This document shows, piece by piece, positions 14,006 through 16,334 of a DNA stretch of 64,000 nt; position 1 is the stretch's first letter, and the number at the start of each line of letters is the position of its first letter. The stretch spans positions 93,671 through 157,670 of the IMG/VR virus record IMGVR_UViG_3300045988_131075, one strand, 5' to 3'. The notes beneath the pieces are model-generated. The model did not search any database. It was given only the letters and a program-made list of their open reading frames with translations, and was not told the DNA's origin. This stretch comes from a virus. Both the position numbers and the translations under genes were made by a program.

Positions 14006-15298
14006 TTAATTTAATAATTCATCTATCCATTCTTGCTTCATATTATTCGGAAATTCTTCGTCTATATTATGTTTTTTATAATATTTATTCCAAAATTCAA
14101 TGTTGGCAAGAGCGCGAGCTTTATGCATAGGACAAATATAAGTAACTCTTTTATTAAGAATTCCAGTATCTTGATAATTATATGCTTGACACCAAGCACA
14201 ACCATTAGCAATAGGACATTCACGACATTCGTCAGAAGATTGAGTATAAGAATTAATTGCTTTTAATTCTTTTGTTAATTGTTTTTGTTTTTCTGTTGTT
14301 GCTATTTCATTTTTATTTACATTTCCTATAATAAGAGGTGGGACGGAATCGCCCAGAGCATCTTCCATATATCGTAAGCAGGGGTATAAATTACCAGTAT
14401 AATTCATAGCAATCATACTTCCATTTCCGCCGCACCAATTCTATAGATCATCTTTATTAGTCCAATCTTTTGGTCTAAATAATTTCAAATCTGGATATTC
14501 AAAAAATGAAATATATACATCTTCTTCTAAATTATTATCAAGGAGATATTGTCCTAATTCTTGTAATTGTTTATAGTAAATTTTGGCGTGTTCTAAAGTC
14601 CAACCTTTTTCAAAAATTACATTCCCTAATATAGAAGTAAATCCTATGTCTAAAAGAGCTTTTACAGCATCATTTAAATACATAACATTATCAGGAGATA
14701 AAGTAATTTTTGAACAAGGATATTCTCCAGTTTTTTTACGCCAATCTTTTATTGCTTTTACAACAATATCATAACTACCTGACCCATCAGGGAATTTTCT
14801 ACAAGCATCATGCAATTCTTTATTACCATCAATACTAATAGAAACAGATAGCCATTGCTTATATTTATCTAAAAATTTTTGTACTTTTGGATCAAAATAT
14901 AATGTTCCATTAGTACAAATTAAAAATCTTGTAAAATAAATTAATGGACTGTTCATTTCAATTAATTTAGAAATTGTATAATCCATTACTTTATCTATTA
15001 AATCTAAATTTAAAAAAGGTTCTCCACCAATAAAATCAAAGACTAAACCTATAATATTATCTGGGTCAAAGTAATCATTTTTCTAAGGATTTACTATTAA
15101 CATATCAATATATTTTTTAGCTGTTTCAAAATCCATTAAATGATTTTTTTTACAAGTTTGATAACAATAACTACATCTTAAATTACAAGCGTCAGTGACC
15201 TGTAAAGTTATATCAAAAACTTTATCGCTTTCATTTTTCCATAGTTCTGGATATAATCTTTGAATTGTATCACTATACTATTCGAATTTACGTCTCAT
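14006..15298 (-). CDS. Radical SAM / SPASM-domain enzyme (3 in-frame TAG)
   Basis: ATG at 15298 (ATGA overlap with the upstream stop). CX3CX2C motif ACNLRCSYCY near 15150. SPASM-like C-terminus ECRECPIANGCAWCQ. The three track fragments join in frame across TAGs at about 15283, 15083 and 14441. Confidence 0.7.
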
Positions 15299-15603
15299 TC
15301 AGCATTATCATTAATTGTTATTGTAATAATTTTTGCTTGGAAGTCAATACTCCAATAGGCATTATTACCATATTTTTCTAAATCATAATATTTTCCAACT
15401 TTATTTCTAATTTTATCATATTCAATAAATTTTTCAACGTATTCTTGATGATATCTTTTATAATTATCAGTATCCATATTATTAAATGAAGTGCTATTCA
15501 TCATATAAGTAATAATACTTTGACGAGCAAGAAGATCTTGATAAGCTCGTTCTAATTTATCATTTAATTCTACATTATTAGCATTTACTGTAATTGTTTT
15601 CAT
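15295..15603 (-). CDS. Hypothetical protein
   Basis: 102 aa ORF between the Cys-rich gene and the radical SAM gene. Confidence 0.35.
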   Translation of the reverse strand: MKTITVNANNVELNDKLERAYQDLLARQSIITYMMNSTSFNNMDTDNYKRYHQEYVEKFIEYDKIRNKVGKYYDLEKYGNNAYWSIDFQAKIITITINDNAE

Positions 15604-15633
15604 TATTTTTCTCCTTTTTATCTTATAAATTAA

Positions 15634-16334
15634 CTTTTTAAAATTTTAGAATATAAAGACTTTAAAGCAGTAATTGCTTTCTGCATTTCAGATTTAGTAC
15701 AGACATTTCCATTATAAGAAGTGTTCTACATTTTAGAAATATTTGTGAATATTTCATTTTTTAAGTTTGTATTAACTTTACTGTTAGAAGAAACTTTTGT
15801 AGGTAAAGTACTATATCCACGCCTAGATAATTCTTTATTTAACATAGTATAAATATTTGCAATATCAGCAGCATATAAAACGATTCTTAAATTAATAGAA
15901 TTATAAAGATTTACATTAGCTGAAGTGGTACATCCATTATCGCAGCCTCCCGTACAATTGCCAGTACAAGCAGAACAGTCATGCCTACAACTAGCACTAC
16001 ATCCAATACATCCGCCAGAACAGCTTCCACTACAATCGGTGCGACAACTAGCACTACATCCAACACATCCGCCAGAACAGCTTCCACTACAATCGGTACT
16101 GCAAGAACCGCCACATCCAGAGCAACCTCCATCACAACCGCCTGAACAACTATTACTACAAACTCCTCCGCATCCAGAGCAACCTCCATCACAACCGCCT
16201 GAACAACTTCCTTGGCATTGGCTAGTGCCGCAAGTTTCACACATAGAACAAGAACCGCCACAACCATGGTCACATCCATTACTACAGCTTATATAGCAAG
16301 TTCCGACACAACCCTATGTAGTACAATTAGCCAT
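15634..16334 (-). CDS. Cys/Gly/Ser-rich repetitive protein (about 25% Cys; 2 in-frame TAG)
   Basis: RBS AAGGAGGA then ATG at 16334. Repeats of the form CSGGCDGGCSGCGG-CS-DCSGSCSGGC-GCSASCR. Continues past TAGs to a TAA near 15634. Confidence 0.5.

Follow-up and report, generated by a model that had tools for sequence, protein, structure and literature searches.

A CXXX-repeat radical SAM maturation cassette in a stop-codon-recoded phage and its possible association with tail fibres

PapA, the substrate of the radical S-adenosylmethionine (SAM) enzyme PapB, is a short peptide with six CX3D units, and the SCIFF peptides comprise about 45 residues with six Cys. QhpD puts Cys thioethers into QhpC, a periplasmic enzyme subunit with few Cys-Asp/Glu links that stays in a larger assembly, the quinohemoprotein amine dehydrogenase. 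Among virion components, the isopeptide 'chainmail' of the HK97 capsid is formed by autocatalytic cross-linking. The CXXX-repeat system, which comprises a maturase family (TIGR04115), target families (TIGR04114, TIGR04117 and TIGR04118) and a small-protein family (TIGR04116), is said to have been defined in silico by Haft and Basu in J Bacteriol in 2011, and has since that year stood in family databases as a predicted pathway for a ribosomally made peptide that is modified after translation (RiPP), without a known product or role. Here we describe a member of this system in a 64,000-nucleotide stretch of viral DNA (IMG/VR record IMGVR_UViG_3300045988_131075, positions 93,671 to 157,670), the whole of which is referred to below as the window. 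The cassette is composed of a gene for a Cys-rich target protein, a small accessory gene and a radical SAM/SPASM maturase gene.

The locus resembles the catalogued CXXX-repeat system in its enzyme, which scores above the TIGR04115 cutoff, in its three-gene layout and in a target built of tandem Cys-x-x-x units; related loci likewise occur in anaerobic Firmicutes. Unlike the catalogued system, it resides in a TAG-recoded phage of the 195-kb class (approximately), its target has the array first and the conserved domain last, and both target and accessory protein fall below the cutoffs of the curated hidden Markov models (HMMs). The system is catalogued as a RiPP system, and its near-universal position behind fibre genes and its link to a fibre C-terminal motif (WIDT, described below) were not found in the literature. 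What appears to be new is thus that the cassette occurs almost entirely in phages and prophages of gut and other anaerobic Clostridia, that its substrates are proteins and not short peptides, that it is tied to the end of the tail-fibre module and to the fibre motif, and that the window carries a permuted target in a stop-codon-recoded phage. For the phage-borne cassette, the protein substrates and the fibre motif, no match was found in the literature searched.

PapB, likewise a SPASM radical SAM enzyme, is reported to form many small thioether rings in a substrate with repeats (PMC12373016). PapB/PapA, the freyrasin (ranthipeptide) system, is related to the window locus in that PapB is the second-best family match of the enzyme, below its cutoff; unlike PapA, the window substrate has 234 residues with 35 Cys in its array, and Asp is rare in the arrays of the family. 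CteB, a SCIFF maturase (5WGG), has the same SAM-cluster and SPASM architecture, but its residues 1-87, which form a RiPP recognition element (RRE) domain, have no counterpart in the window enzyme, whose 234-residue partner also contrasts with the SCIFF substrates. By analogy, QhpD/QhpC offers the best precedent for a structural product, although the window target differs from QhpC in being a repeat array and a phage protein. Were a structural role true, the locus would also recall, by analogy only, the HK97 chainmail, in which covalent cross-links harden a virion component; unlike in HK97, the cross-links would be introduced into a fibre-associated protein by a dedicated radical SAM enzyme.

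The maturase, its Cys-rich target and the accessory protein

The minus-strand segment 16855-14006 is a phage operon that contains a CXXX-repeat radical SAM maturation system in complete form (Table 1). The enzyme scored 405.8 bits (2e-121) against TIGR04115 ("radical SAM peptide maturase, CXXX-repeat target family"; cutoff 350), its residues 30-402 aligning with positions 4-359 of the 359 in the profile. Every other maturase family remained below its own cutoff, including the PapB family NF047865 (194.3 bits, cutoff 340), the SCIFF maturase family TIGR03974 (133.8 bits, cutoff 425), the QhpD family (105.7 bits, cutoff 453) and the anaerobic sulfatase maturase family TIGR03942 (77.9 bits, cutoff 349.45). 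A QueE-like PHROG matched only at an E value of 0.079. Given the TIGR04115 score above cutoff, the enzyme is a peptide or protein maturase and not an activase or a sulfatase maturase. A first-pass annotation, made from the window's letters, had proposed a peptide-modifying SPASM enzyme and had regarded membership in a non-peptide-modifying clade as fatal to its idea; the HMM classification upholds the proposal.

The same annotation had recognized a CX3CX2C motif near the N-terminus and a SPASM-like C-terminus, and both were confirmed. The SAM-cluster motif consists of C38, C42 and C45, and the seven-Cys SPASM pattern is complete (C289-x12-G302-x4-C307, C358-x2-C361-x5-C367-x2-C370, C389); in an alignment of 26 homologues all of these Cys are invariant. 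Pfam Radical_SAM matched at 1.4e-10, and the Pfam SPASM match was marginal (20.8 bits versus 21.5). The nearest solved structure by profile is that of CteB (5WGG, E = 7.7e-33). Only chain residues 88-442 were matched, and since the match begins at residue 88, the window enzyme is without the N-terminal RRE domain. Proteins about 50% identical to it in Anaerosporobacter and Caproicibacterium bear the same family name at NCBI.

The target contains 36 Cys, or 15.4% of its 234 residues, against a mean of 1.9% over all open reading frames (ORFs) in the window. The Cys content of about 25% given in the first-pass annotation therefore applies to residues 1-135 only, not to the whole protein. Among the 34 consecutive Cys-Cys spacings, 24 are of three residues, eight of two and two of four, and the Cys repeats are far beyond chance. 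The segment after the last CDNGC does contain a single further Cys (C212), as had been noted, but is 99 residues long and not about 75. Residues 1-135 are the presumed site of modification. Within them, Tandem Repeats Finder detected a 57-bp unit with 98% matches over 1.9 copies, and the length of the target varies among close relatives with that of the array (196, 216, 234 and 253 aa). For the equivalent array of a relative, the AlphaFold2 (AF2) predicted local distance difference test (pLDDT) score is below 50. The C-terminal non-Cys domain, presumably devoted to recognition or docking, has its homologue at the N-terminus of most family targets, and the window target thus shows a permuted domain order. 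A link between permuted targets and one enzyme clade was considered; the nearest non-redundant relatives of the window enzyme have targets with the usual N-terminal domain.

The 102-aa gene between target and enzyme, and with it the catalogued three-gene system, had no place in the first-pass account. Its product is predicted with a pLDDT of 90 to form a strand, a long helical hairpin and a beta-hairpin. The possibility that it is a stand-alone, PqqD-like RRE was discarded, the predicted fold not being the winged helix of such proteins, which has three helices on a three-stranded sheet. Its position and sequence pattern are conserved across relatives, and it matches three uncharacterised gut-phage proteins in BFVD.

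Under the standard code, the target and enzyme genes are interrupted by in-frame TAG stops, five in all (three in the enzyme and two in the target), and both genes lie where the first-pass annotation had placed them. The cassette genes are read with TAG as Gln, via the phage's own tRNA(CUA). In the enzyme, TAG codons 7 and 286 align with Gln in 16 and 15 of 25 homologues, respectively; these two codons stand opposite ordinary Gln codons in a 90%-identical relative, and TAG is opposite Gln in the family consensus too. At codon 203 of the target, the relatives L007-L009, whose target genes are TAG-free, have an ordinary Gln codon. The suppressor tRNA itself is unusual for one that inserts Gln: its variable arm is approximately 20 nt long, and the default ARAGORN label is 'Pyl'. 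This oddity prompted the consideration of a residue other than Gln, which was dismissed on the strength of the homologue counts and of the CAR codons in close relatives.

Compared with L007-L009, the target gene shows a nonsynonymous divergence (dN) of 0.095 and a synonymous divergence (dS) of 0.76 (dN/dS approximately 0.13), and the enzyme gene a dN of 0.02 and a dS of 0.39 (dN/dS 0.05). These values indicate that both genes are under purifying selection and that, as judged from their sequences, the Cys-rich gene is real and translated. An untranslated Cys-rich ORF, which would have undone the first-pass proposal, is thus not what we find.

Distribution of the cassette and its position behind tail-fibre genes

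Relatives are encoded by 381 IMG/VR stretches. The survey gathered 161 loci, made up of close relatives of the window phage, 80 of these 381 stretches and 77 loci from species-representative genomes, the last almost all from Clostridia. In the close relatives of the window phage, found on viral contigs of 47-197 kb, the enzyme is 87-99% identical. De-replication at 85% enzyme identity left 64 loci with at least 2.5 kb of upstream sequence. In 52 of these 64 non-redundant loci, the enzyme gene has a Cys-array ORF upstream of it on its own strand, and 41 of the 64 have an ORF of about 100 aa as well, which, where found, ends -30 to +63 nt from the enzyme start. So frequent an arrangement means that the two genes are not neighbours by accident, in agreement with the pairing suggested by the first-pass annotation.

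The targets of the family are proteins, not short peptides, with a median length of 245 aa (range 59-576) and a median of 38 Cys (range 9-121). Across 66 arrays, 1776 CX3C and 723 CX2C spacings were counted, others being rare, and the residues between the Cys are mostly Ser, Thr and Gly. Nearly all targets also possess a conserved non-Cys domain of about 100 aa with an invariant E..RR helix, for which Pfam, PHROG and PDB sequences gave no match. This domain is N-terminal in 37 loci, to which eight loci with the array split over two ORFs can be added, and C-terminal in the window clade and three other loci. At E values up to 0.1, 33 of 89 family targets match TIGR04117, 17 match TIGR04114 and 11 match TIGR04118. 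Many target relatives (P0123, P0125, P0128 and others) carry the precomputed Pfam accession PF27846, a recent entry that may already describe the domain or the repeat. In Caproicibacterium (CP135996; L003/L004 4988-5695, plus strand), the deposited gene call reads the Cys array in the wrong frame and fuses it to the accessory protein; the misframed product has 193 aa ('MVVMVALGLAMVV...'), and the real 235-aa target is uncalled. Gene callers thus misframe Cys-array genes, and the targets are probably under-annotated in public genomes.

Across relatives, the cassette is overwhelmingly borne by phages and prophages, with the last tail-fibre gene before it and the lysis genes after it. Caproicibacterium CP135996 carries it twice, each time in a prophage, between genes for Baseplate_J, Mu-gp48 and fibre proteins on one side and genes for a GH25 lysin and holin-like proteins on the other. 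Pfam families were counted among 150 upstream and 150 downstream proteins of the non-redundant loci. The most frequent families upstream were Baseplate_J (10), Phage_tail_fib (10), Mu_Gp48 (8), Tail_P2_I (4), Collagen (4), Mtd_N (4), Sheath_initiator (3) and BppU_N (3), and those downstream, mainly of lysins and holins, GH25 (5), Amidase_3 (4), holin_4_1 (4), PG_binding_1 (4), SH3_3 (4), Amidase_2 (2) and CHAP (2). No exporter or leader-protease family is found among the 25 commonest neighbour families on either side. The gap between the upstream ORF and the Cys gene is most often 5-13 nt.

About 25 siphophage contigs form a group (the L043 group) in which the genes run from the tape-measure protein through the distal tail protein (Dit) and a minor tail protein to a 795-aa structural protein and then the target. 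The targets of this group have an extra C-terminal domain of about 190 aa after the array, which is beta-rich by composition, varies between subgroups (54-63% or about 31% identity) and has no match in Pfam, PHROG or PDB sequences. This layout of anchor, shaft and variable tip is as expected of a fibre. Within L043-L083 (around 7065-7631), the domain of about 190 aa is mostly in frame; in L060, L068, L076, L071 and L075 it lies in another frame or behind a stop, which could reflect a repeat assembly error or a natural on/off switching of the fusion.

The ORFs immediately 5' of the Cys gene encode 82-974 aa. Of 74 representative loci, 23 have a plus-strand ORF, upstream of the enzyme, that terminates in the motif AP..T..LWIDT..G..KYYNG..W.....WG, and tail-collar-fibre N-termini are present in some of the motif carriers. 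The end of this WIDT motif lies -37 to +49 nt from the start of the Cys gene in the 22 loci with a called Cys gene. The association was also approached from the motif, by searching IMG/VR with a degenerate DNA pattern. This yielded 58 stretches, of which 53 could be judged, and a Cys-array ORF follows within 1.8 kb of the motif in 45 of the 53. Two of the eight exceptions are the L008 and L009 contigs, where the cassette lies elsewhere, and two more are contigs of 159-181 kb with the same motif variant. Other cassette loci follow fibres with different C-termini, and the WIDT motif therefore marks one class of partner and not the sole one. Searches of the fibre-motif proteins against INPHARED gave no match.

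The window itself encodes a tail-fibre-like protein that ends in the WIDT motif (45227-46321), away from the cassette. Its N-terminus aligns with that of the protein encoded at 53437-54699 (E = 0.007), which matches PHROG tail-fibre families. We propose this WIDT-motif protein as the partner of the cassette product. Motif and cassette thus remain associated even when physically separated, an argument for a functional tie. Two further ORFs near these genes deserve mention. A minus-strand ORF of 159 aa (44757-45236) overlaps the end of the WIDT fibre gene, terminates in a half-motif (...SAPTAADGKNGDIWIQYSE) and may represent another piece of fibre of that type. Beside the tail-fibre-like gene 53437-54699, a minus-strand gene (55091-56584) encodes a protein of 497 aa with seven TAG codons, a Gly run and three or four repeats of about 70 aa (YNGGSGSY...F.GW...); it has no PHROG match and may be a receptor-binding or adhesin protein.

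Proposed mechanism and competing explanations

Our preferred explanation, to which we assign a probability of roughly 0.7, is that the CXXX-repeat maturase staples the Cys-array protein by thioethers and that the product is probably associated with the tail fibre. The enzyme and the small protein would bind the target via its conserved non-Cys domain. Recognition is assigned to this domain because the enzyme is without an RRE and the domain is the sole conserved part of the substrate, and the small protein would take part, in view of its translational coupling to the enzyme and its co-conservation. On the model of PapB, CteB and QhpD, 5'-deoxyadenosyl radical chemistry would then join Cys sulfurs to carbons of neighbouring residues as thioethers, turning a floppy array of Cys, Gly, Ser and Thr into a chain, or ladder, of small covalent rings independent of the redox state. 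Links of this kind would suit strictly anaerobic hosts, in which disulfides are unreliable. The product would stay a protein and work with the tail fibre. Thioether stapling of the array is in itself likely, by analogy with the related maturases; given stapling, a fibre-associated product and a released peptide stand at about even odds. Of the two products offered by the first-pass annotation, a cross-linked structural protein and a RiPP-like product, the genomic context leans to the former. The structural role rests on the relatives, because in the window the cassette has an operon of its own, 29 kb away from the fibre gene.

A wider and more tentative proposal, which we regard as somewhat more apt to fail than to hold, is that the entire CXXX-repeat 'RiPP' family serves phages as an accessory module of the tail fibre. 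It would furnish a thioether-laddered rod or tip, resistant to redox changes and proteases, whose domain of about 100 aa docks on WIDT-motif fibres. If the product is a stapled fibre part, it would represent a new way to build virions, give radical SAM thioether chemistry a new role in biology and supply genetically encoded protein rods of great stability. As a fibre module, it would be the first case in which an enzyme installs radical cross-links in a virion component, and it would give an anaerobe a replacement for fibres stabilised by disulfides. If it is instead a released peptide, phages would be delivering a widespread natural product in the human gut. Either answer is directly testable, because the cassette is present in several cultured lysogens; the cultured carriers are Caproicibacterium CP135996 (two copies), Neglectibacter timonensis SN17, Eubacterium pyruvativorans i6, Anaerobacterium chartisolvens DSM 27016, Desnuesiella massiliensis mt10, Vallitalea maricola AN17-2 and Anaerolentibacter hominis CSJ-1.

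Several observations weigh against the preferred explanation. Asp, the acceptor residue of PapB, accounts for only about 3% per inter-Cys position in the arrays, and because it is so rare the thioether acceptor is not evident. The window target reaches 14.9 bits on TIGR04114 (cutoff 20), with no other target family listed. The accessory protein is not of RRE fold and scores 13 bits on TIGR04116 (E = 0.084, cutoff 50), this weak match running over the full length of the profile (positions 10-89 of 90); just one of 29 small proteins matches TIGR04116 at E < 0.01. The window cassette forms its own operon beside PhoH and lysis genes, at the distance from the fibre gene given above. No cultured phage in INPHARED has a close homologue of the enzyme, the best match by tblastn being an unannotated faecal contig at 37% identity, and a blastn search with 4 kb for close cultured phages returned a 58-nt PhoH match only. 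The literature searches found nothing on TIGR04115 or the CXXX-repeat system. To our knowledge, no TIGR04115 member has been experimentally characterised. Furthermore, a conserved 'leader-like' domain joined to a hypervariable core also has the look of a classical RiPP precursor.

The last point is the starting place for the most serious competitor, a classical RiPP or bacteriocin-like cargo, in which the non-Cys domain would serve as leader (in the window, as follower) and the stapled array would be cut off, released at lysis and directed at other bacteria or the host. NCBI curators call related targets 'rSAM-modified Cys-rich RiPP' (TIGR04118), and a conserved recognition domain with a core variable in both sequence and length follows typical RiPP logic. 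The slot between tail and lysis genes in temperate phages also hosts cargo genes dispensable for virion assembly, and the separate window operon lies near lysis genes. A cargo of this kind is nevertheless unlikely. Protease and exporter families are missing from the frequent neighbours, the targets measure 150-570 aa and some have the extra variable, beta-rich C-terminal domain. In addition, the target gene follows closely on the fibre gene before it, with a gap mostly of 5-13 nt, and the cassette co-occurs with WIDT-motif fibres even when the two are unlinked. Alternatively, the array could be a metal or iron-sulfur binding module, the enzyme making a different modification or few cross-links. 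Runs of CX2C and CX3C are classic spacings of metal ligands, the array alone is predicted to be disordered, and the scarcity of Asp noted above fits here as well. This explanation appears quite improbable, as the closest characterised relatives PapB, CteB and QhpD all form Cys thioethers, a dedicated maturase is held in strict synteny with arrays of 9-121 Cys, and metallothionein-like proteins require no maturase. Incidental adjacency or decay, finally, would make the TAG codons true stops and the genes pseudogenes, or would place the enzyme in an NrdG- or QueE-like metabolism. The standard code does break both genes with stops, and NrdG and QueE radical SAM enzymes are common in phages; against this stand the alignment of TAG with Gln, the encoded suppressor tRNA, the purifying selection, the conserved synteny and the TIGR04115 score above cutoff in comparison with the faint QueE-like match. 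We consider this last explanation refuted.

Locus layout and neighbouring genes

The coordinates of the cassette and of related features are collected in Table 1. The maturase start codon overlaps the stop of the accessory gene (ATGA), and ribosome-binding sites of the AAGGAGG and AAAGGAG types precede the target and accessory genes, respectively. Two terminator-like hairpins bracket a four-gene unit consisting of the trio and the ORF at 16855-16349. The promoter-like site agrees with the consensus at 10 of 12 positions in the scan; as evidence of a promoter it is weak, because this AT-rich region shows no excess of comparable sites over shuffled sequence. Within the surveyed loci, the first ORF of the operon has tblastn matches in window-like loci only, and PHROG and Pfam searches with it returned no match. 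By tblastn, the 168-aa and 160-aa ORFs that flank the cassette are restricted to the window's own clade. A fourth conserved gene 3' of the enzyme, of about 105-120 aa in prophages, was considered and rejected, each version being present in only three to five loci (tblastn). Two long ORFs cross the Cys array in other frames, one of 123 aa (15925-16296, plus strand) and one of 122 aa (15911-16279, minus strand). They are rich in Pro and Gln or in Val and Ala and are by-products of the TGY/GGN/AGY composition of the repeat, not genes.

Table 1. Features of the CXXX-repeat cassette and associated elements in the window
Feature	Position	Strand	Description
Operon's first ORF	16855-16349	minus	168 aa from TTG, or 152 aa from ATG at 16801; 2 TAG
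Cys-repeat target gene	16334-15630	minus	234 aa; TAG at codons 7 and 203
Cys array	15930-16334	minus	target residues 1-135; 35 Cys (25.9%); CX3C/CX2C units
Tandem repeat	15987-16119	minus	57 bp (19 aa), 2.3 copies; inside Cys array
Non-Cys domain	15633-15929	minus	target residues 136-234
Small accessory gene	15603-15295	minus	102 aa; TAG-free
Radical SAM/SPASM maturase gene	15298-14006	minus	430 aa; TAG at codons 7, 72 and 286
Promoter-like site	16827-16856	minus	TTGCAA, 17-nt spacer, TATAAT; TG ahead of second hexamer
Intrinsic-terminator-like hairpin and T-run	14007-13969	minus	18-pair stem, then TTTTGCTTTT; directly after the maturase stop codon
Second terminator-like hairpin	17026-16991	minus	closes the gene upstream of the cassette
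Tail-fibre-like WIDT-motif protein	45227-46321	minus	364 aa; ends ...LLWIDTTSSTGFLKYRSSNTSAWTAVPVAWS; 29 kb from cassette
Suppressor tRNA, anticodon CUA	57769-57858	minus	90 nt; long variable arm; ARAGORN

The first-pass annotation had also described a lysis cassette as adjacent and, from the TAG codons, late expression as probable. The endolysin gene (11848-10547) lies three genes downstream of the cassette and does not immediately adjoin it. Genes with TAG codons, the endolysin gene among them, are clustered at 10547-16855 and flanked on either side by TAG-free genes; late expression of this block is consistent with the data. However, TAG-rich homing endonuclease genes occur elsewhere in the window, and TAG is therefore no clean marker of late genes. 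These GIY-YIG/HNH genes (1314-2327, 57863-58618 and 61791-62387, minus strand) have four to five TAG codons each. The endolysin, encoded on the minus strand, is of the Phage_lysozyme2 plus Amidase_2 type and matches PHROG endolysin families; its eight in-frame TAG codons are the maximum in the window. The putative holin gene just downstream of it (10150-10545) contains no TAG.

Just upstream of the cassette, a minus-strand gene (17030-18415) encodes a Band_7/SPFH (flotillin-like) protein of 461 aa with a long coiled region rich in Ala, Glu and Lys. The gene is TAG-free and is conserved in the related phage L001. The window also contains 13 tRNA genes, all on the minus strand between 37767 and 63326: Cys, Gly, two Ser, Thr, Tyr, Val, Pro, two Ile, His, Leu and the suppressor. 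A tRNA-Cys is thus encoded by a phage that also makes a protein with 36 Cys.

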